Assembly: GCA_003194425.1 (NCBI GenBank)
Contig: PQXB01000001.1
Coordinates: forward strand, 190,444-222,443
DNA: 32,000 nt
DNA from: Candidatus Methanophagaceae archaeon
GTDB lineage: Archaea > Halobacteriota > Syntropharchaeia > Alkanophagales > Methanospirareceae
Direction of reading: 5' to 3'
A program made the translations under genes and the position numbers. The stretch's first letter is position 1. The number at the start of each line of letters is the position of its first letter. The notes beneath the pieces are model-generated. The model did not search any database, had not been told where the DNA came from, and saw only the letters and a program-made list of their open reading frames with translations. Below are positions 3,661 through 29,580 of this stretch, piece by piece.

Positions 3661-3895
3661 CTTCCACCCTCACCTCACCTAGGAATTCGATTAAAAGATT
3701 TGGTGACTTTACTGCTCCTACTGCTCTTCATCGTAAATGTAGCAGTCGTGCTCCCTCCCGCTGACACCTTCTCTCTCGACAAATCCAACGCATTTTCACA
3801 AGGGCGAACCAAAAGTGAAGACCTTTCTCCTCGCCTTTCCGAGACCAGACAGTGCATTTTACTAACCTTTTTTCACCTTAAAATATTTCCTCTTC

Positions 3896-3960: not shown

Positions 3961-5553
3961 CTACTTCTTCTCCCTTCTCCGCTGTCCGAGCAAGAAGTAG
4001 CCCACGACCCCGAGCAGCCCCGCCGAGAACAGCACCACCGTCGGCAACTCCGGAACCGGCGCACACGGCACTGGACCAGACTTGTAGCCACTGAAGTCCA
4101 CTTCCCCTTTTCCCGCATTCTCGTCGTTGTCGTAAATGCTTGCATCTATTTTCGCCGCGTTTGTCGTGCCCCAGTAGTTGTTCTTCGCCGTTACTGCGTC
4201 TGACTGGTCGTTGTAGAAGTTCCACTCGTACCCCTCGCTCGTTCCGTTGTAGTTCCCGTTCACTAAAATGTTGTTCTGCGCGATTGTGTTCCCTGTGCTT
4301 CCGCCTGATAAGTGGAACCCTGCCTGCTTGTTGGCTTGCACCCTGTTGCACGAAATGTTGTTGCCGTCCGTGTTCCAGAGCCGGATGCCTTGCTTGTTGT
4401 TCTCGTTCGCGGTGTTGCCGGTCAGAGTGTTGTAGTTCGAATAATCCAGAAAGATGCCGTCCCAGTTGTTGTAGTTAGCGGTGTTGCTGGTAAGGGTGTT
4501 GTTGCTCGAAGAATCCAGCTCGATGCCGTCGTCGTTGTTGTAGTTAGCGGTGTTGCTGGTAAGGGTGTTGTTGCTCGAAGAATTCAGCCAGATGCCGTCG
4601 TCGTTGTTGTAGTTAGCGGTGTTGCCGGTCAGAGTGTTGTAGTTCGAATAATCCAGCAGGATGCCGTCCCAGTTGTTCTCGTTCGCGGTGTTGCTGGTAA
4701 GGGTGTTGTAGTTCGAATAATCCAGCAGGATGCCGTCGTCGTTGTTGTAGTTAGCGGAGTTGCTGGTAAGGGTGTTGTAGTTCGAATAATCCAGCCAGAT
4801 GCCGTCCCAGTCGTTCTGGTTAGCAGTGTTGCTGGTAAGAGTGTTGTTGCTCGAATAATCCAGCCAGATGCCGACCCAGTTGTTGTAGTTAGCGGTGTTG
4901 CTGGTAAGGGTGTTGTTGCTCGAAGAATCCAGCAGGATGCCGTCGTCGTTGTTGTAGTTAGCGGTGTTGCTGGTAAGGGTGTTGTTGCTCGAATAATCCA
5001 GCTCGATGCCCCAGTCGTTCTGGTTAGCAGTGTTGTTCGTTAGCTCGTTGTTGCTTGAATCCTGCAGGTAGATGCCGAACCAGCTGTTTTTCGAGCAGTT
5101 GTTCTCAGAGATCTTGCAGTGCTGCACGCCGTTGAGGGTAATCCCTGCTATCCAGCCACCACTTGTCGCTCCGGTCGCCGTGAACCCTGAGATGTTCACC
5201 CAGTCCGCGGTCACTTCAAAGACGTCGTCGCTTGAACTTGCCGCGGTCACTGTCACCTTGTCCTTGCCTTCGCCCTCTAGCGTGAGGTGTGCTGTCCCCA
5301 CGTTCACGTTCTCGTTGTAACTCCCGTTGTAAACAAAGACGGTGTCGCCGCTGGTTGCTGCGTTCACTGCGTTCTGAATTGTTGCGTAGTCGCACCCTAT
5401 TGCGCAGACGGTGTAAGTCGCTGCGTTCGCTGTTCCCACAACTACCGCGGCGACTGCGCAAAGGGCAAGCGTAAAGGCAAAAAAGAAACCCATTGCAGAC
5501 GCTGCCACCGCGGTATTTTCCTTCTTTCCTAATCCGTTTTTTCCTTTTCGCAT
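3961..5553 (-). CDS. Secreted right-handed beta-helix (NosD/PbH1-repeat) surface protein with an archaeosortase-type C-terminal sorting signal
   Basis: 530 aa with a signal peptide (..AAVVVGTANA/ATYTV). About eleven 22-23-aa repeats follow the pattern TSNTANYNNDDGILLDSSSNNTL. The C-terminal tripartite signal is PVPELP - TVVLFSAGLLGVVGYFLLG - QRRREKK, which is PEF/PGF-CTERM-like. Confidence 0.85.
   Translation of the reverse strand: MRKGKNGLGKKENTAVAASAMGFFFAFTLALCAVAAVVVGTANAATYTVCAIGCDYATIQNAVNAATSGDTVFVYNGSYNENVNVGTAHLTLEGEGKDKVTVTAASSSDDVFEVTADWVNISGFTATGATSGGWIAGITLNGVQHCKISENNCSKNSWFGIYLQDSSNNELTNNTANQNDWGIELDYSSNNTLTSNTANYNNDDGILLDSSSNNTLTSNTANYNNWVGIWLDYSSNNTLTSNTANQNDWDGIWLDYSNYNTLTSNSANYNNDDGILLDYSNYNTLTSNTANENNWDGILLDYSNYNTLTGNTANYNNDDGIWLNSSSNNTLTSNTANYNNDDGIELDSSSNNTLTSNTANYNNWDGIFLDYSNYNTLTGNTANENNKQGIRLWNTDGNNISCNRVQANKQAGFHLSGGSTGNTIAQNNILVNGNYNGTSEGYEWNFYNDQSDAVTAKNNYWGTTNAAKIDASIYDNDENAGKGEVDFSGYKSGPVPCAPVPELPTVVLFSAGLLGVVGYFLLGQRRREKK
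4405..5091. repeat. Tandem array of about eleven 69-bp units (one unit is 66 bp) inside the beta-helix gene
   Basis: Unit starts (GTTAGCGG / GTTCGCGG) were counted at 4405, 4474, 4543, 4612, 4681, 4750, 4819, 4888, 4957 and 5023. Adjacent units share long identical stretches such as GTGTTGCTGGTAAGGGTGTTGTTGCTCGAAGAAT. Confidence 0.9.
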
Positions 5554-23694: not shown

Positions 23695-24474
23695 TCACCT
23701 GAACCGCCTTACCATCGCCGCATAAAACTCAGGCATATTCTCGCCAGTCAACGCAGAAATAGGAATAACAAAGTGTTGAGGGAAGGCTTTTTTTATTTTT
23801 TGCGGTGCCGCACTTGAGAGGTCTATTTTATTCGCAGCGATGACGACTGGAATCCCCCGTGCTTCCATATTTCCGATGATTACGACATTAGTTTGTGTGT
23901 AGGGGTCTTGAGTAGCGTCCATTAGGAGAATGACGCCGTCAATGTCGTCAAGCCATTTTATCGCTTCAATGACGCCCTCGGTCGCCTCTTTCGCCCGCTG
24001 CTTCGCCTCCTCCTCCCTCAAGCCGTAAGCCAAGAAGTCGTGAAAGTCGATTTTCGTCGCCAACCCCGGTGTGTCCACTACATCCAACTTTAACTTCGCT
24101 CGTCCTTTCCGCCCGCTTTTTGTGCTGGGGTTTGTGCTGGGGTCTCCGTTTCTGGTTGGGTCTCCGTTTCTGGTTGGGTCAGACAGAGGTTGAGGGTTTG
24201 AATTGAAGTTTGTTCTTTGGAATTGTTTTAGATTTTGCTTCAGGTCAATGAGAATTCCGCCCCGCCTGACCGCTCTTCTCGTCTCGTGCGGAATTTCTGA
24301 GGCTGTTCCAACGTCCTCCTCCTCGTCCGCAAAAGTGTGAATTATTCGGTTTGTCAGCGTTGTCTTCCCTGCGTTCGGCGGTCCGTAAATGCCGATTTTT
24401 ACGCTCCTCTTTTTGAAAAACAACGCCTCCAGCAGCCACGCTAAAATCCCGCTTGTTCTTCTTCTCCGCACCAT
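23695..24474 (-). CDS. Era-like / small GTP-binding protein (archaeal conserved)
   Basis: 259 aa with the P-loop GPPNAGKT plus DTPG and NKID motifs. A low-complexity insert containing DPTRNG x2 sits between G1 and G3. Confidence 0.75.
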   Translation of the reverse strand: MVRRRRTSGILAWLLEALFFKKRSVKIGIYGPPNAGKTTLTNRIIHTFADEEEDVGTASEIPHETRRAVRRGGILIDLKQNLKQFQRTNFNSNPQPLSDPTRNGDPTRNGDPSTNPSTKSGRKGRAKLKLDVVDTPGLATKIDFHDFLAYGLREEEAKQRAKEATEGVIEAIKWLDDIDGVILLMDATQDPYTQTNVVIIGNMEARGIPVVIAANKIDLSSAAPQKIKKAFPQHFVIPISALTGENMPEFYAAMVRRFR

Positions 24475-24650: not shown

Positions 24651-24950
24651 TTGAGAGGGGCAGAAGGGGCAGAGGAAGTAGTGCGCGTGCGACTCCCACA
24701 AAGGAGGGAGCGGGAAGTGTTAGCAGTAGTTGAGAAGTTGTTAGGCGGGCGGAGGGCGAAGGTGCAGTGCCTGGACGGTGTGGAGCGGCTGGCACGGATT
24801 CCGGGCAGGCTGAAGCGGCGGAAGTGGGTAAAAGCAGGGGATGTTGTAATAATTGTGCCGTGGGATTTTCAGGACGCGAAGGCAGACCTCATTTACAGGT
24901 ACGAACAACCTCAGGTGGAATGGCTGCGAAAGAAGGGCTACTTGAATTAG
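24651..24950 (+). CDS. eif1a: Translation initiation factor aIF-1A
   Basis: 99 aa. VRVRLPQRREREVLAVVEKLLGGRRAKVQCLDGVERLARIPGRLKRRKWVKAGDVVIIVPWDFQ is the S1-like OB fold of the eIF-1A family. No in-frame ATG is available upstream, so TTG is the start. Confidence 0.85.
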   Translation: MRGAEGAEEVVRVRLPQRREREVLAVVEKLLGGRRAKVQCLDGVERLARIPGRLKRRKWVKAGDVVIIVPWDFQDAKADLIYRYEQPQVEWLRKKGYLN

Positions 24951-25993
24951 AAGCGGAGGCAGAAGAAGCCGTAGAGGTAGAAGAAGGGCGGTGGCTGAGG
25001 GTAGAAGAAGGGCGGTGGCTGAGAAAGGAAGGGAAGCTGCAGTCCAAGGGAAAGAGGAGGAGGAAGGATTTTCGGGACAGGAAAACGGAGTTGGAGGTTC
25101 TCGACACGCTGACTTTGGAAACGCTCTACAAACTCTCGAAGCAGGGGATTTTAAAAGCGTTGGGCGGACCCGTGAGTAGCGGCAAAGAAGCAGTCGTCTT
25201 TCACGCAGTAGGTGGAGGCGGTGCAGAAGGAGAGTTGGCGGTAAAAATCTACAAGACCAGCACCTCTAATTTTAATACAATGTTGGACTACATTCTCGGC
25301 GACCCCAGGTTTGCGAGGGTGAAAAGAGACCGCAGGAGCGTCGTTTTCGCGTGGGCTCGTAAGGAGTTCAAGAACCTGAAGCGGGCGTTTGACGCGGGCG
25401 TGCGAGTTCCGAAGCCGATTGCCTGCGAGAAAAATGTGCTTGTGATGGAGTTCGTAGGAGAAGGGGAAGGGGCAGGGACAGAAGGAGCAGGGGAGGAAGG
25501 GGAGGCGGTAGCGGCGCCGAGGTTGAGAGACGTGCCCGTGGAAGTGCTTGAGCGAGAGTTTTGCGGTGGCGTTGAAGAACTTTTTTTGCGTGTCGTCGCC
25601 GCTGTGAAGATTTTGTACGCGAAGGCGGGGCTGGTGCACGCTGACCTCAGCGAGTTCAATATTTTGCTCAACTTCAACTTTTTCTCTAAAGAGAAAACCT
25701 TGACTAAAAGAGGCTCTGAAGAGAACTCCTTCACTAAAAGAGGCTCTGAAGAGAACTCCTTCACTAAAAGAGGGACAGAGGAGGCAGCAGAGCCCGTGAT
25801 AATAGATATGGGGCAGTCTGTGCTTTTGGAGCACCCTAACGCGGACGCTTTCTTAAGGCGAGATGTGAAAAATATCGTCGCGTTCTTTAACAAACTCGGA
25901 TTGGACTGTGCAGGCTCAGAAGACGAAATACTGAGGAAGGTGAAGGGGGAGAGGGAAAGGAGGGGGAGGGAAGAGGGTGAGAAGGAGAGGTAA
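24920..25993 (+). CDS. rio1: RIO1-type serine protein kinase
   Basis: The track ORF starts at 24767, deep inside aIF-1A in another frame. The first ATG in that frame is 24920. Motifs are FRDRKTELEVLD, SSGKEAVVF, LVHADLSEFNIL and IDMGQSV. It carries 24-bp x2 and 30-bp x2.4 in-frame repeats. Confidence 0.8.
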   Translation: MAAKEGLLELEAEAEEAVEVEEGRWLRVEEGRWLRKEGKLQSKGKRRRKDFRDRKTELEVLDTLTLETLYKLSKQGILKALGGPVSSGKEAVVFHAVGGGGAEGELAVKIYKTSTSNFNTMLDYILGDPRFARVKRDRRSVVFAWARKEFKNLKRAFDAGVRVPKPIACEKNVLVMEFVGEGEGAGTEGAGEEGEAVAAPRLRDVPVEVLEREFCGGVEELFLRVVAAVKILYAKAGLVHADLSEFNILLNFNFFSKEKTLTKRGSEENSFTKRGSEENSFTKRGTEEAAEPVIIDMGQSVLLEHPNADAFLRRDVKNIVAFFNKLGLDCAGSEDEILRKVKGERERRGREEGEKER

Positions 25994-25995
25994 AA

Positions 25996-26559
25996 ATGGC
26001 AACGCAACAACACAAACAGCAGATTAGGGTTAGGATTCCTCTGGACAGAGTGGGCGCTCTAATCGGGCGTGACGGTGCTGTAAAGGGGATTTTAGAGAAA
26101 AAATCAGAGACGAAAATAGCAGTGGACAGCAACGAAGGAGAAGTGTGCGTAGAGGGCGTAGAAGGTGGAGACCCCGTAAAAGTGCTCGGAGCTGCAGAGG
26201 TGGTAAAGGCAGTAGGCAGGGGTTTTTCGCCCGAAAAGGCTCTTGCACTGCTTGACGATGATTTTGTCCTGCTCGACCTCGTCTCCCTTGCCCACCTCTC
26301 GCCGAAGACGCTGAAACGGGTGAAGGGGCGAGTAATCGGGCAGAACGGGCGAACGAGGCGGACGGTAGAGAACTTGGCGGGCGTTAAAATCTCGGTCTAC
26401 GGGAAGACCGTCGGCTTAATCGGACATTCGCACCAGATAAGGACTGCGCGTGAGGCTGTCGAAATGCTGATAAACGGCTCGCCGCACAGCGCGGTCTACT
26501 CCTTCTTGGAACGGCGGCGAGCGGAGGAGAGAGGGAAGGAGGGCGTTCGTGAGTCGTGA
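25996..26559 (+). CDS. KH-domain RNA-binding protein (aDim2p/Pno1-like, two KH modules)
   Basis: 187 aa with LIGRDGAVKG and VIGQNGRTRRTVE GxxG loops. It starts 2 nt after the rio1 stop. Confidence 0.8.
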   Translation: MATQQHKQQIRVRIPLDRVGALIGRDGAVKGILEKKSETKIAVDSNEGEVCVEGVEGGDPVKVLGAAEVVKAVGRGFSPEKALALLDDDFVLLDLVSLAHLSPKTLKRVKGRVIGQNGRTRRTVENLAGVKISVYGKTVGLIGHSHQIRTAREAVEMLINGSPHSAVYSFLERRRAEERGKEGVRES

Positions 26560-27251
26560 GGAACTTTGAGGAGGAACGGCGGCGGCTGGTGGAGCGTCTC
26601 AGGGCTCAAGGCGTCGGCAGTGAGGAAGTGTTGGCGGCGCTGGGGCGTGTTAAACGGCACTTTTTTGTCCCGCAGCACCTTGCAGAGCAGGCGTACGCCG
26701 ACTACCCGCTGCCGATTGGCGAGGGTCAGACGATTAGCGCACCGCACATTGTTGCGCTAATGTGCACTTATTTGGAGTTGCGGCGGGGGGAGAAGGTGCT
26801 TGAAATTGGCGCTGGCTCGGGCTACCACGCCGCGGTCGTTGCAGAACTCGTGGGCGAGGAGGGACAGGTGTACTCAGTGGAAAGGGTTGAGTGGTTGGCG
26901 GAATTTGCAAGGGCGAACCTGAGGCGGGCGGGCTACACGCAGGCGAGTGAGGGCGTGGTGCGGGGCGACGGAACTCTGGGGCTGCCCGAGCACGCGCCGT
27001 ACGACAAAATAAGCGTTGCCTGCGCTGCCCCTGATGTGCCACCGCCGTTGCTTGAGCAGTTGCGAGCAGGCGGGAGAATGGTCATTCCAATTGGGAAATT
27101 TATGCAGACGTTGTATCTGGTGAAGAAGGAGAAGGGAAAAGAGAAGGAGCGAGAGAGGCAGGAGGGCAGGGAAGAGGTAGTGCGGGAGAGGAAGTGCAGT
27201 GTGGTCTTTGTGCCTCTGGTGGGGCGGTACGGGTTCAGGGAAGAAGATTAA
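26556..27251 (+). CDS. pcm: Protein-L-isoaspartate O-methyltransferase
   Basis: The GTG start overlaps the upstream stop (GTGA). Motifs are QTISAPHIVA, VLEIGAGSGY and VFVPLVG. There is a K/E/R-rich insert before the last strand. Confidence 0.85.
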   Translation: MRNFEEERRRLVERLRAQGVGSEEVLAALGRVKRHFFVPQHLAEQAYADYPLPIGEGQTISAPHIVALMCTYLELRRGEKVLEIGAGSGYHAAVVAELVGEEGQVYSVERVEWLAEFARANLRRAGYTQASEGVVRGDGTLGLPEHAPYDKISVACAAPDVPPPLLEQLRAGGRMVIPIGKFMQTLYLVKKEKGKEKERERQEGREEVVRERKCSVVFVPLVGRYGFREED

Positions 27252-27257
27252 AAGAAT
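27244..27257 (+). repeat. Left copy of the 14-bp direct repeat AAGATTAAAAGAAT (contains the pcm stop codon)
   Basis: Read directly. It is identical to 29086-29099. Confidence 0.9.
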
Positions 27258-27426
27258 GCAGAAGAGATTATTTGAAGGAAATGTTGAGCAGGGGGAAGAC
27301 AGGAATAAGAGGGAGGGGTTTGTGATAAAGGATCGGGAAAAGAAGCAGAAATATTCTGCTGAAGAGATAAAAAATAAAGTTATCTCGGGAGATGCTTTCA
27401 AAGTTCTTAAGAAAATGAGTGAGTAA
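27256..27426 (+). pseudogene. N-terminal relic (56 codons) of an N4/N6-type DNA methyltransferase
   Basis: MQKRLFEGNVEQGEDRNKREGFVIKDREKKQKYSAEEIKNKVISGDAFKVLKKMSE*. The end resembles the usual pre-DPPY N-terminus of beta-class amino-methyltransferases (NKIi.GDa.evLKklp....DLi.tsPPY). The ORF stops before any catalytic or SAM motif. Confidence 0.4.
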
Positions 27427-27451
27427 AAATGTTCAAAAGGAGTTTTTGAAA

Positions 27452-28186
27452 ATGGTTACTAAAGTAGAAGCAATCAAAAAGGTTTTGGAGGATTTTAATG
27501 GCGTGGCAACTTGGGAGCAAATTTATGAGAATATTGAAAATTTTTATCCGTCAGCTAAAGTAAGTAGAGAATGGAAAGCGGGGATACGGGGGGTTTTATA
27601 CAGAGAACTCAAGAATAACAGAATTTTTAAAAAGATAGGTTTGGGAATTTATGCGTTAAAAGATTATGAGGAGGAAGAGAAGCCAAAGCCTGAGGAGAGG
27701 AGAAGAATGCACCCTTACATTGAAGGTATTTGCTTGGAGATCGGCAGGTTTGAAGGTTTTGAGACTTACACACCTGATAAATCCGCTGTATTCACGGACG
27801 GTATTTATTTAGGTCAAATCGCAACACTTTTAGAAATTCCTCAATTCACTTATCCAGAAATCGTAAATGTCGTGAGAAGAATAGATGTTTTGTGGTTCAA
27901 CAGCGTAGGCTTTAAGTTTCCCAAATACGCGATTGAGGTAGTAGATGCCGCTGGAACGCTTACCGACGCTCTGAACAGGTGCTTTCAATTGGTCTATTTT
28001 AACACTAACTTTACAATCGTGGGACCTGTGGAATACAAGGATAAATTTGAAGGGAAGATGAACAATGAACCTTACTTGAGGATTAGAGAGCGATTTGAGT
28101 TTAAGGACTACAAAATAGTTACGGATTTCTACGAATATTCAGTGAAAATGGACGAAGTTAGAAAAGGATTTTTTAGGGGTGTGTAA
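27452..28186 (+). CDS. wHTH (HARE-HTH/Mrr-N-like) + PD-(D/E)xK-like nuclease-fold protein, family unassigned
   Basis: ATG at 27452 with AAGGAG 9 nt upstream, giving 244 aa. Residues 5-70 (EAIKKVLEDFNGVATWEQIYENI...IFKKIGLGIYALKDY) look like a winged helix of the type fused to restriction nucleases. A C-terminal domain with H87, E91/E96, IDVLWF (D145) and AIEVVD (E162) follows the H...E...iDv.W...P..aiEV pattern of restriction-endonuclease-like folds. Confidence 0.55.
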   Translation: MVTKVEAIKKVLEDFNGVATWEQIYENIENFYPSAKVSREWKAGIRGVLYRELKNNRIFKKIGLGIYALKDYEEEEKPKPEERRRMHPYIEGICLEIGRFEGFETYTPDKSAVFTDGIYLGQIATLLEIPQFTYPEIVNVVRRIDVLWFNSVGFKFPKYAIEVVDAAGTLTDALNRCFQLVYFNTNFTIVGPVEYKDKFEGKMNNEPYLRIRERFEFKDYKIVTDFYEYSVKMDEVRKGFFRGV

Positions 28187-28216
28187 GCAAGCGGAAGCAA
28201 GCGGGAGGAAAATAAA

Positions 28217-29107
28217 ATGAACTATGAAAAGTTTTGTTCAATTATGAACGAGCAGATATTCAGGGAGGATAAGAAAAAACTGCTGAGAATAATTGCTTCA
28301 CAGGAGCTGTATTTTGGAGATTTCAGCCTGTTAAATTCGCAAATATTCCTGGGCAGTTGTTTGCAGCATCTCTTGCAGTCCCGCGAGATTAGATTTGGAG
28401 ATGCGATGGAAGAGTTGATTTCGGAGTTGCTGCGTGAGTGGGGATTTAAGGTGCTTCCAAAAATAATCCTGCCCGACGCCGCGAATAAAAGGAAGAGGCT
28501 TGAAATAGACCAATATTTTACGAAGTCCGAGGGGGGGGAGGTTTTTTATTTCATCGAGCAGAAGGTTAGAGACGACCACGATTCCACGAAGAAGAAAGGA
28601 CAACTGAACAATTTTGAGGCGAAGTTGGAGTTTCTTTACAAGAAGCACGGCGAGAGGCTTGAGGGAATTATGTATTTTGTCGACCCTGATTTGAGCAAGA
28701 ACAGGAATTTTTATGCGGAAGAACTGAAGAAGATGGAAGAGACTTACGGGCTAAAATTGGAGATTCTTTACGGCAAGGAGCTCTTTGAATATTTTGGGAG
28801 AGGGGAGTTGTGGGAGGCGATTTTGGAGTGGTTAGGGGAGTGGAAGGAGGGTTTGCCAGAACTGCCGGAGATAAACTTTGATACCAGTCCAAGAGAGAGT
28901 TTTGAAGAGATCAAAGATTTGGAGGTAAGGTATTGGAGAAGAATCTTAGGGAACGAGAGGCTGTGGGAAGGAGGAATAATGAAAGCGATTTTTAGAGAAG
29001 GTGAGACTTTGCGGAGTTTGTTAGAATTTTTCAGATTGGAGGAGCAGGATCTCGCACACGAACGGTTGGCTGAGTTGCTTACTCAAAGATTAAAAGAATT
29101 TTACTGA
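28217..29107 (+). CDS. PD-(D/E)xK restriction-endonuclease-like protein (D98-x15-E114-Q-K116) with a helical W/E-rich C-terminal domain
   Basis: ATG with GGGAGG 8 nt upstream, giving 296 aa. LEIDQYF...FYFIEQKVRDDHDSTKKKGQLNNFEAK is a canonical D...ExK core. From memory it is similar to some type II REase families (possibly TdeIII-like), but this is unverified. Confidence 0.6.
   Translation: MNYEKFCSIMNEQIFREDKKKLLRIIASQELYFGDFSLLNSQIFLGSCLQHLLQSREIRFGDAMEELISELLREWGFKVLPKIILPDAANKRKRLEIDQYFTKSEGGEVFYFIEQKVRDDHDSTKKKGQLNNFEAKLEFLYKKHGERLEGIMYFVDPDLSKNRNFYAEELKKMEETYGLKLEILYGKELFEYFGRGELWEAILEWLGEWKEGLPELPEINFDTSPRESFEEIKDLEVRYWRRILGNERLWEGGIMKAIFREGETLRSLLEFFRLEEQDLAHERLAELLTQRLKEFY
29086..29099 (+). 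repeat. Right copy of the 14-bp direct repeat AAGATTAAAAGAAT (inside the last codons of the 28217..29107 gene, 23 nt upstream of the psd-like ATG)
   Basis: Read directly. It is A/T-rich and may double as the TATA element of the downstream gene. Confidence 0.9.
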
Positions 29108-29121
29108 CACAAATAACACCA

Positions 29122-29580
29122 ATGACCGAGCAGATGCTTTCGCCTGCGAGCGGGAAGGTAACGAGGGTTGAAGAAGGAGGAGACCGAGAAGACCGAGGAG
29201 ACCGAACGATTTCTATTTTTATGCACCTCCACAACGTGCACGTCACTGCCGCACCGTTAGACGGAGTGGTGAAAAAAATAACACCCGAGCTGGGAGGTAC
29301 TTTCAAGCCCGCATTTCTCCGCAGCAGCGATTTCAACACGAGGAACACGATTGAACTCGCGACGAAATACGGGGAGGTGAAAGTAGTGCAAATAGCGGGA
29401 TTTTTTACGCGGAAGATCAAGTGCGAGGTGAAAGTAGGGCAGGAGGTCGCTAAAGGAGAGAGAATGGGTAAAATCTGCTTTGGCTCTCGCGTGGATGTGA
29501 GCGTTCCCGAGGGGCTTGAGATTTTGGTGCAGAAGGGGGAGAAGGTGCGGTGTAGGAGGACTGTTTTGGCGGAGCGGTAA
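29122..29580 (+). CDS. psd: Phosphatidylserine (archaetidylserine) decarboxylase-related protein, short form
   Basis: 152 aa with LSPASGKV, HNVHVTAAPLDGVV, VVQIAGFFTRKI and KICFGSRVDVSVP (the G-S self-cleavage-type motif). Confidence 0.65.
   Translation: MTEQMLSPASGKVTRVEEGGDREDRGDRTISIFMHLHNVHVTAAPLDGVVKKITPELGGTFKPAFLRSSDFNTRNTIELATKYGEVKVVQIAGFFTRKIKCEVKVGQEVAKGERMGKICFGSRVDVSVPEGLEILVQKGEKVRCRRTVLAER

Follow-up and report, generated by a model that had tools for sequence, protein, structure and literature searches.

Mobile type II restriction-modification (R-M) units are the closest described counterparts of the island analysed here. Insertions of such units have been described at translation starts and stops and within clusters that resemble operons (Furuta, Abe & Kobayashi 2010, PMC2853133; for related insertions, see Nobusato et al. 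2000). The present island resembles these mobile units in being small and of foreign GC content, in lying between conserved neighbours at a translation stop/start site of an operon-like cluster, and in being variable among close relatives; partial methyltransferase (M) and endonuclease (R) genes were also figured by Furuta et al. It differs from them in that neither a long nor a short target duplication, nor a linked mobility gene, accompanies it, and in that M is dead and a third gene replaces most of it. A second precedent comes from Photorhabdus luminescens, whose PluTI element (Khan et al. 2010, PMC2875022) consists of an R-M unit and additional genes between the copies of a perfect 16 bp direct repeat that first suggested site-specific integration and was later traced to pre-existing sequence, much as is concluded below for the repeat of our locus. 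The PluTI repeats, however, come from IS ends that lie outside the genes, and an empty site was not available for that element, whereas here the repeats are the ends of cassette genes and the empty site is known.

The two larger genes of the island also have described relatives. R shares with the HpyAIV/HinfI family (GANTC; NF045832, PF09520) a full-length match, a D...EQK core, and the C-terminus, but has no intact cognate methyltransferase beside it and carries a variant N-terminus of about 50 residues, so that its GANTC specificity and activity are at most predicted. Fusions of winged-helix and nuclease domains act as N6-methyladenine-dependent type IV enzymes (DpnI, HhiV4I; PMC11037411). 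The gene between M and R, called ORF2, appears similar to these in its predicted N-terminal winged-helix-type domain and predicted PD-(D/E)XK-like domain and in usually lacking an adjoining functional methyltransferase; the similarity in sequence and fold is weak, however, and ORF2 sits amid what is left of an adenine methyltransferase gene, beside a type II endonuclease gene. Domains of the HARE-HTH type have also been proposed to read cytosine modifications, unlike the N6-methyladenine-reading fusions. In ANME-1 archaea, defence genes have been reported as strain-level structural variants (Zhou et al. 2026, PMC13385816), which the island resembles as an R-M-type presence/absence variant among closely related genomes; it differs in being a single 1.9-kb cassette in a housekeeping operon and not a large variable hotspot, and neither pcm nor psd is mentioned in that report. 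The kind of event is ordinary, a defence-gene cassette that varies between strains, while the cassette itself is moderately unusual.

The features of the locus within the window, that is, the whole 32-kb stretch of DNA that was analysed, are as follows:

26556..27251, + strand: pcm, protein-L-isoaspartate O-methyltransferase (Pfam PCMT, E=1e-62)
27238..29120, + strand: inserted segment, promoter-less, starting 18 nt upstream of the ATG of the dead M gene and ending 13 nt beyond the stop codon of R
27244..27257, + strand: repeat copy 1, Shine-Dalgarno spacer and the "AT" of the truncated methyltransferase start codon
27256..27426, + strand: M remnant of 56 codons, pseudogene of a beta-class N6-adenine DNA methyltransferase
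27452..28186, + strand: ORF2, 244 aa, predicted N-terminal winged-helix (HARE-HTH-like) and C-terminal restriction-endonuclease-like (NmeDI_C / CCGG-family-like) domain
28217..29107, + strand: R, 296 aa, HpyAIV/HinfI-family type II restriction endonuclease (NCBIfam NF045832, 205.5 bits against a cutoff of 160)
29086..29099, + strand: repeat copy 2, R codons Q290-R-L-K-E-F295
29122..29580, + strand: psd, archaetidylserine decarboxylase-like, short 152-aa form (Pfam PS_Dcarbxylase, E=3.5e-28)

The island is a genuine and recent foreign insertion between pcm and psd of an ANME-1-type methane-oxidising archaeon, because pcm is directly followed by psd in about 14 ANME-1/Methanophagales genomes (L004-L015, L017, L028) and because conspecific empty sites exist. 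Two conspecific contigs without the island, L084 and L091 (flank identity 97.9% and 99.5%), share the junction ...GGTTCA|AATGACCGAG, also written GGTTCA|AATGACC, and set the borders of a 1883-bp insert, with BLAST breakpoints at 27237|29121 between filled and empty contigs. In the empty allele, the pcm product terminates in ...GFK*, and the TGA stop codon shares bases with the ATG of psd (TTCAAATGACC). In the filled allele, the last four codons and the stop of pcm (REED*) come from the insert, the new TAA lying at 27249-27251, inside repeat copy 1; psd retains its ATG and loses only the overlap with the pcm stop, and its protein does not differ between filled and empty alleles. Both flanking genes remain intact after the insertion. 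A 5′ truncation of psd was considered and rejected, as a protein of 152 aa is usual for this clade and relatives match residues 1-150.

No host bases are duplicated at the insert edges, and neither microhomology at the junctions nor terminal inverted repeats at the insert ends were found. The insert holds just three ORFs (the M remnant, ORF2, and R) and no recombinase; that it has neither integrase nor transposase had been observed in an earlier note on this DNA. No tRNA or Rfam family was detected in the 32-kb window. GC content is 0.60-0.64 in pcm, 0.37-0.44 within the island, and about 0.52-0.60 in the flanks; the insert mean of 0.404 is the minimum of the window, and the computed fall from about 0.62 to about 0.40 bears out the earlier hand counts. 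Other stretches of lower GC in the window (0.5-2 kb, 11-12.5 kb, and 16-18 kb) encode ordinary housekeeping proteins.

Ten filled alleles, from independent assemblies or contigs, carry the island, and SNPs in the flanks are common to filled and empty haplotypes; the island segregates as a presence/absence polymorphism in the host population. It shows the deviant GC, the conspecific presence/absence, and the nearest homologues in other lineages that are expected of a horizontally acquired islet. The nearest homologues of R and ORF2 lie on a contig of a Thermoplasmatota genome and on metagenome contigs, and the homologue searches yielded no near-identical donor cassette (nearest, 82% for ORF2 and 65% for R). 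A viral vehicle, for which the earlier note had proposed a search, did not emerge: IMG/VR contained no ORF2 relatives and no match to the element conserved beside the L102/L093 cassettes.

The M remnant aligns by tblastn with only residues 8-40 of the intact 301-aa M of L092. Since it ends before the DPPY motif and has no AdoMet-binding motif, it is classed as a pseudogene; one allele (L083) additionally carries a 2-nt frameshift in it. Judged by these motifs, the methyltransferase gene is dead and the island is not a complete type II R-M system. R is an intact, full-length member of the HpyAIV/HinfI endonuclease family with a variant N-terminus. The NF045832 match covers residues 1-266, and the PADLOC REase_II match (E=5e-66) residues 1-290. 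The core D98...E114-Q-K116 is kept, and D98, E114, Q115, and K116 are invariant columns, the window protein included; 1166 homologues of R were collected. An N-terminal segment (FSLLNSQIFLGSC) stands in place of the canonical FRPTKPGAK, and the variant class of R, defined by about 50 N-terminal residues, co-occurs with ORF2. Variant R genes have dN/dS values of 0.11-0.22, and the seven SNPs found in R (three nonsynonymous, four synonymous) are compatible with constraint; decay of R in the population was rejected on this ratio.

ORF2 is predicted to be a winged-helix and nuclease-type protein. Its 317 homologues are about 240 aa each, and the domain NmeDI_C (PF27126) is precomputed for most of them; HARE-HTH was detected in nine of 29 family members (best E=1.7e-5), the window protein not being among them, and the window's own ORF2 matched no Pfam family in the local library. 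AlphaFold2 models of ORF2 (mean pLDDT 93 and 91) gave weak Foldseek matches to BsaWI (TM 0.50, E=0.03), with the nuclease domains of Mus81 and Can2 also among the top matches, and to the winged-helix domain of DpnI (probability 0.89, E=0.3). D145 and E162 are invariant, with no obvious lysine. No solved structure matches either ORF2 or R by sequence. The dN/dS values of ORF2 are 0.13-0.28, and it has no SNP across ten alleles against seven in R, a difference that rests on small numbers (P ~0.015).

The combination of truncated M, ORF2, and variant R recurs in four other metagenome contexts (L093/94, L095-97, L102, and L110), one of them from a Thermoplasmatota genome, and canonical R accompanies intact M in L092, L111, and L113. 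ORF2 usually occurs without a functional methyltransferase partner, with M truncated in five contexts and absent in L098, L103, L106, and L108, where ORF2 homologues stand alone among housekeeping genes. A supposed integrase fragment beside the L102 cassette was rejected, as Pfam gave only sub-threshold HARP/DUF2683 matches.

An active GANTC enzyme would be lethal to an unprotected host because 30 kb of host DNA contains 62 GANTC sites. One might suppose that the system is a functional classical type II pair with its methyltransferase gene at another place in the genome, in which case the M remnant beside R would be irrelevant. The full length of R, its retained catalytic residues, and the purifying selection on it fit such a system, as does a moderate under-representation of GANTC in host DNA (observed/expected 0.58). 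This depletion is no stronger than that of GGNCC (0.58) or CCNGG (0.64), however, and the 32-kb window contains no second methyltransferase of the M family. The N-terminal segment of R is altered in these cassettes, and a fortuitous unlinked methyltransferase would be needed in each of the four other contexts with the methylase-less arrangement, which makes an intact type II system with a distant partner unlikely.

A conspicuous feature of the island is its 14-bp direct repeat. AAGATTAAAAGAAT occurs exactly twice on the + strand of the window, at 27244-27257, spanning the pcm stop, and at 29086-29099, in agreement with the counts of the earlier note, and no copy with one mismatch was found; its 10-bp core, GATTAAAAGA, also occurs at 3689-3698, as had been noted. 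Copy 2 ends 22 nt ahead of the psd ATG (29122). The true insertion borders are displaced outward from the repeat, by 6 nt at copy 1 and by 21 nt at copy 2, and both copies are native cassette sequence, one being the 5′ leader and start of M and the other C-terminal codons of R. Regions homologous to copy 1 are found 5′ of M in L102 (GGAGATTAAAATATG), L110 (GAGGATAAAAGAATG), L105 (GGAGGATAAAACAATG), and L095 (GGAGAAAAAGAATG), and, at an equal distance from the ATG, the M leaders of L102 or L110 account for 13 of the 14 nt of copy 1. In the family alignment, the C-terminus of R follows the conserved pattern ..QRLxE(Y/F)Y, in which Y296 does not vary, and the DNA consensus is xAAAGATTxxxxGAATAxTAx; the bases to the right of copy 2 (TTTTAC TGA) complete this conserved terminus and therefore belong to the cassette, not to the host. 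The direct repeat between M start and R end is not conserved in L093, L095, L102, or L098, where the best 14-mer matches reach 9-11 of 14. The 14/14 identity is most likely a coincidence of two purine-rich, independently conserved elements.

A repeated 14-mer is common as such, and the earlier caution on this point was well placed, as the 32-kb window contains about 12 dispersed exact repeats of at least 14 nt. An arrangement in which each end of the insert has its own copy at no more than 40 nt is rare, with a probability of 3e-5 for independent bases and a frequency of one in 3000 second-order Markov simulations; when family constraints are allowed for, the chance rises to perhaps 1e-3 to 1e-2, by rough estimate. 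The low chance of such terminal positions when composition alone is modelled (3e-5 to 3e-4) could favour a secondary origin of copy 1, as a by-product of integration or later repair; a short stretch from the 3′ end of R would then have reached the left junction through template switching, templated filler synthesis, or slippage. Local copying or slippage is shown by allele L086, in which 25 bp (GGTTCAGGGAAGAAGATTAAAAGAA) are duplicated in tandem precisely at the left junction, and the junction sequence CAGGGAAGA occurs 70 nt upstream in pcm as well. Against this, copying is not needed to explain copy 1, because 13 of its 14 nt are matched by the M leaders of L102 or L110; furthermore, there is no simple priming microhomology, and six extra nucleotides (GGGAAG) separate the host end from the repeat. 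We consider an origin of copy 1 by copying to be rather improbable.

The earlier note had taken the repeat for a target-site duplication or an att (crossover) core, with an ancestral junction consisting of the pcm stop, a single 14-mer, and then TTTACTGACAC..psd. Conspecific empty sites and synteny uphold the insertion itself; the repeat is not its scar, because the 14-mer is missing altogether from the empty sites L084 and L091, as is the 41-nt spacer, the pcm TGA instead overlapping the psd ATG. The absence of the single-copy junction from relatives without the island had itself been named in advance as evidence against the proposal. Sought among metagenome contigs as the exact pattern GGGTTCAGGGAAGAAGA N{5,35} CACCAATGACCGAGCAG, that junction gave no match, and it is absent among the contigs listed for the window's pcm and psd proteins. 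The perfect repeat does bracket the low-GC segment, the filled tail GFREED* does resemble the natural pcm tails of relatives (GFKTD*, GFKGD*, GFRDYE*), and the pcm-psd spacer does vary widely across ANME-1 genomes; yet the right side of copy 2 is the conserved R C-terminus, copy 1 is homologous to the M leaders of unrelated cassettes, and no integrase or transposase is present, all of which leaves the duplication or att proposal with very little probability. Two related schemes were also rejected. A tandem-unit or rolling-circle donor would predict a 41-nt terminal redundancy from the 1842-bp spacing, of which only 14 nt match. A single crossover of a circle at the 14-mer is contradicted by what follows each copy, namely M sequence and not the 3′ end of R after copy 1, and the conserved R codons FY* after copy 2.

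That the island is ancestral at the site in this species, the empty contigs being precise deletions or assembly collapses, is scarcely credible even though the filled allele is the commoner one (8/10 places among the contigs retrieved), as no outgroup ANME-1 genome has the island and the stop/start overlap recurs in several of them, the composition is foreign with the nearest relatives in Thermoplasmatota and bacteria, the empty junction is present in two independent NCBI assemblies, and a deletion would need to recreate the in-frame ATGA overlap without microhomology.

The reading we favour, with a probability of roughly three in four, is that the cassette is a horizontally acquired, promoter-less descendant of a HinfI/HpyAIV-type (GANTC) R-M operon that was inserted cleanly at the pcm/psd junction, and that the repeat is not a scar. 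Its point of entry would have been the 4 bp shared by the pcm stop and the psd start, in a single lineage of an archaeon related to ANME-1. The absence of known signatures points to integration by an illegitimate, end-joining-type event at a break. The insertion may have survived since both ORFs were preserved, and the filled allele may then have spread via homologous recombination in the flanks. Within the cassette, ORF2 occupies the place of the lost part of the methyltransferase.

As to function, we tentatively propose, at somewhat short of even odds, a methylase-independent nuclease module of which ORF2 is the selected component. ORF2 might act as a stand-alone enzyme, possibly modification-dependent and type IV-like, and the variant endonuclease would be non-toxic without cognate methylation. 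Expression of the cassette might occur by read-through from the eIF1A-RIO-KH-pcm operon. A more speculative and, on balance, doubtful extension is that ORF2-type genes are invaders of HinfI/HpyAIV-type R-M operons, which replace the catalytic 3′ part of M and bring their own first ~50 codons of R. A classical type II system would in this way be converted into a stably selected, horizontally mobile, methylase-less module of two nucleases, and the ANME-1 island would represent a copy that arrived recently.

The locus provides a recent gain of a cassette in a conserved housekeeping operon, resolved to the base pair and free of the signatures of known recombinases. It is also a case, in an uncultured archaeon, in which a conspicuous flanking direct repeat is no insertion scar, as only the conspecific empty site revealed. 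The cargo suggests a recurrent, selected arrangement in which a dead methyltransferase is combined with a putative winged-helix nuclease and with a restriction enzyme whose N-terminus has been exchanged. If functional, the arrangement would have a bearing on the ways in which restriction systems cease to depend on methylation, as well as on conflicts of methyl-dependent with methyl-protected systems. If the invasion proposal is true, ORF2 would offer a natural path by which modification-protected restriction could become independent of modification or dependent on it.

The psd protein was found by exact look-up in ten places, with the island present in eight of them and missing from two, the conspecific contigs L084 (GCA_026133975.1) and L091 (GCA_029935835.1). 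Both empty contigs read ...GGGCGGTACGGGTTCAAATGACCGAGCAG..., with pcm ending in GFK* and its TGA overlapping the ATG of psd. Flank identity to the window is 99.5% for L091, over 4.4 kb, and 97.9% for L084; for the remaining filled alleles, identity is 98.6-99.2%. The window junctions read ...GGTTCA(27237) / GGGAAGAAGATTAAAAGAATGCAG ... TTTTACTGACACAAATAACACC(29120) / AATGACCGAG, and BLAST breakpoints between filled and empty alleles fall at 27237|29121, thus defining an insert of 1883 bp (27238-29120). Comparison of filled and empty alleles revealed no duplicated host bases and no microhomology at either junction, and no terminal inverted repeats of the insert, tRNA genes, or Rfam matches were found. 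The island is a clean insertion of an operon-trimmed cassette, reaching from 18 nt upstream of its first ATG to 13 nt past its last stop, and the landing site is the 4-bp pcm/psd overlap. The insert provides pcm with a new tail (REED*), and psd is intact. A truncation of psd was considered and rejected, because its 152-aa form is the usual one in the clade.

The insertion proposed in the earlier note is thus confirmed by the empty conspecific sites, and the drop in GC on which it drew was reproduced (0.60-0.64 in pcm, 0.37-0.44 between the repeat copies, the window minimum). Flank polymorphisms are common to filled and empty haplotypes, indicating that the island is a presence/absence variant segregating within a recombining population. 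The flanking genes (GTPase, eIF1A, RIO kinase, KH protein, pcm, psd, SIS-like protein, and ProRS, in this order) share 60-75% protein identity with those of ANME-1/Methanophagales genomes. In about 14 of these genomes gene order is conserved and pcm is directly followed by psd, with spacings from an 8-bp overlap to ~370 nt, and the island genes occur in none of them.

The pcm-psd spacer of one ANME-1 relative (L006:2422-2661, compared with L005:5189-5251) contains a ~180-nt MITE-like insert whose termini form inverted repeats (GGCACTGTCGAA...AGACAGTGCC) and which comes with a duplication of 9 bp, AGCGCAAAG; the insert is missing from a close relative, so the spacer is a recurrent insertion site. 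The long spacers of another ANME-1 group (L014, L015, L017, and L028; e.g., L028:1192-1560) contain runs of an 8-nt unit, CTAAACCG/CTAAACCA. Host proteins also carry short, charged, purine-coded tandem insertions in frame (EEGRWLRV/EEGRWLRK, KRGSEENSFT twice, DPTRNG twice, GDREDRGDR), for example in the RIO (24767-25993), GTPase (23695-24474), psd (29122-29580), and pcm (26556-27251) genes. Their lengths differ between alleles, the RIO gene being called at 339-370 aa, and they are a host-wide trait with no relation to the island.

Three ORFs lie between the repeat copies; as the earlier note had stated, neither an integrase nor a transposase is present:

27256-27426: methyltransferase (M) remnant, 56 codons
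27452-28186: ORF2, putative winged-helix/nuclease gene, 244 aa
28217-29107: R, full-length HpyAIV/HinfI-family endonuclease, 296 aa

The M remnant matches only residues 8-40 of an intact 301-aa M of the beta-class N6-adenine type (contig L092), ends before the DPPY motif, and is a pseudogene. A 2-nt insertion that frameshifts it in one filled allele (L083:4208-4209, window ~27328) is consistent with this status; the same allele further lacks one nucleotide at window 28206. R scores 205 bits against its NCBIfam model (cutoff 160), is called REase_II by PADLOC, and retains an intact D98...E114-Q-K116 core. A conventional GANTC enzyme would be lethal to the host without protection. The host DNA of the window contains 62 GANTC sites (observed/expected 0.58), a depletion no stronger than that of other palindromes. 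For ORF2, 317 homologues of ~240 aa each were detected, most of them with a precomputed Pfam NmeDI_C match (PF27126); HARE-HTH was found in 9 of 29 members. AlphaFold2 models of ORF2 were confident (mean pLDDT 93 and 91). Foldseek revealed weak likeness of the N-terminal domain to the winged helices of DpnI and histone H1, and of the C-terminal domain to the nuclease domains of BsaWI (TM 0.50, E=0.03), AgeI, Mus81, and Can2. Across ten ANME-1 alleles, ORF2 has no SNPs and R has seven (three nonsynonymous, four synonymous).

The window contains two exact copies of the direct repeat AAGATTAAAAGAAT (27244-27257 and 29086-29099) and no one-mismatch relatives of it; its 10-bp core recurs at 3689-3698, as noted earlier. 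Repeated 14-mers are not rare in themselves, with ~12 dispersed exact pairs of at least 14 nt in the window when a repeat-protein gene is excluded, and location alone gives the 14-bp repeat its significance. That gene, of the beta-helix/NosD type (ORF 3961-5553, minus strand), is the source of most repeated 14-mers of the window; many exact direct repeats of 14-59 nt lie within it at 4396-5035, spaced by multiples of 69 nt. Both copies of AAGATTAAAAGAAT lie within the insert, copy 1 at 6 nt from its left end and copy 2 at 21 nt from its right end. The stop codon of pcm (TAA, 27249-27251) falls within copy 1, which is made up of the Shine-Dalgarno spacer and the first two start-codon bases ("AT") of the truncated M gene; unrelated cassettes read GGAGATTAAAATATG (L102), GAGGATAAAAGAATG (L110), GGAGGATAAAACAATG (L105), and GGAGAAAAAGAATG (L095) at this position. 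Copy 2, 22 nt before the psd ATG (29122), encodes Q290-R-L-K-E-F295 of R. The R-family C-terminus is conserved as ..QRLxE(Y/F)Y, with Y296 invariant in 17 sequences and a DNA consensus of xAAAGATTxxxxGAATAxTAx, so that the TTTTAC TGA to the right of copy 2 is also part of the R gene.

Descent accounts for each copy in its own right. The two elements have about 10 of the 14 positions fixed, independently of each other, and the A/G-rich M leaders and R ends are alike across cassettes; the best 14-mer matches reach 9-11 positions inside other cassettes and, in most cross comparisons, 8-12, apart from a single 13/14. Composition-only models give a probability of 3e-5 to 3e-4 for the terminal 14/14 match. 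We roughly estimate the real chance at ~1e-3 to 1e-2, for a feature picked post hoc. The 13/14 match pairs the M start region of the window (AAAGAATGCAGAAG, 27251-27264) with the codons for the R C-terminus in an unrelated cassette (AAAGATTGCAGAAG, L113:4341-4354). Shuffles of the two end regions of the window gave 13/14 at 2.5e-4 per comparison, with ~48 comparisons made, and the match may reflect chance or hint at a shared ancestry of M leaders and R 3′ ends.

The repeat is unlikely to be a junction by-product of integration. One filled allele (L086:4086-4135, homologous to window 27232-27256) does carry a 25-bp tandem duplication, GGTTCAGGGAAGAAGATTAAAAGAA twice, exactly across the left host/insert junction, suggestive of slippage or repair acting locally or of a quirk in the assembly, but no such process is required to explain the repeat. 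A target-site duplication or att core, as the earlier note had proposed, is excluded by the continuation of the R gene past copy 2 alone, and the 14-mer occurs in neither empty site and twice in every filled allele; the predicted single-copy junction was not found in the metagenome collection. A flanking repeat that is not an insertion scar has a precedent in the PluTI element, whose perfect short flanking repeat was traced to sequence that was already in place (PMC2875022).

Cassettes of this type recur, with R in two forms:

Canonical R (FRPTKPGAK segment): accompanied by an intact M, in some cases with a third gene between the two; L092, L111, L113
Variant R (FSLL(N/K)...C segment): ORF2 and a 3′-truncated M; window, L093/94 (a Thermoplasmatota genome), L095-97, L102, L110

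In variant contexts M has ~253, 72-85, or 56 codons, and on L105, a short contig ending inside ORF2, a 252-codon M adjoins ORF2. Between M and R, canonical HinfI/HpyAIV-type operons have varying third genes, encoding a 345-aa protein with a weak EVE-domain match (L092:3958-5004) or a 173-aa protein without a Pfam match (L113:2983-3504), and this slot is a possible accessory-gene hotspot. R has a mosaic structure, in which the first ~50 residues form two classes (window 28217-28366, L093, L095, L102, and L110 versus L092, L111, and L113) that group by ORF2 linkage, whereas the remainder can be nearer to canonical enzymes; between L102 and L111, identity is 0.51 over the N-terminal part and 0.80 beyond it. 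The variant N-terminus always occurs with ORF2 and a truncated M, whatever the kinship of the rest of R, suggesting that ORF2 travels with the R 5′ end by recombination at the conserved LQHLLQSHEIR region. In comparisons with measurable dS, variant R gives dN/dS values of 0.11-0.22 and ORF2 values of 0.13-0.28; both genes have been kept under selection with no intact methyltransferase next to them. Homologues of ORF2 are also seen on their own among housekeeping genes (L103, L106, L108) or beside a decayed R fragment (L098).

An inverted repeat with a GC-rich core, TTCCGCCCGCCAA / TTGGCGGGCGGAA, borders some of the ORF2 cassettes (L102:527-539, L102:2943-2955, L105:149-161, L093:1998-2010, L094:1875-1887). 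The window insert is roughly equivalent to the segment between such repeats, but lacks the repeats themselves. Downstream of R, L102 and L093 have a nearly identical ~60-nt element, with weaker similarity to ~150 nt, despite R proteins only 63% identical; this element had no Rfam or tRNA match and no match in viral contigs.

Integration was probably recombinase-independent and of an illegitimate end-joining type, and the insertion would have been retained because both flanking genes were spared, the allele presumably spreading via homologous recombination. Since all genes are co-directional and the ATG of the dead M gene begins 5 nt past the new stop codon of pcm, the cassette may be expressed through read-through from the upstream operon. 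R-M units are established as small mobile insertions with foreign GC content, often at start/stop sites or in operon-like clusters and sometimes including partial M and R genes (PMC2853133), and strain-level variation in defence genes is known from ANME-1 (PMC13385816). With PluTI, these precedents place the island within an established kind of event. We tentatively favor (about 40%) a nuclease module that is methylase-independent and in which selection acts on ORF2. ORF2 could belong to the described winged-helix-fusion enzymes that depend on modification (PMC11037411), which would also explain its place in the wreck of an adenine methyltransferase gene, a location that would fit the epigenetic-conflict idea (PMC2993543). 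The part that merits pursuit is the recurrent architecture of dead M, ORF2, and variant R.
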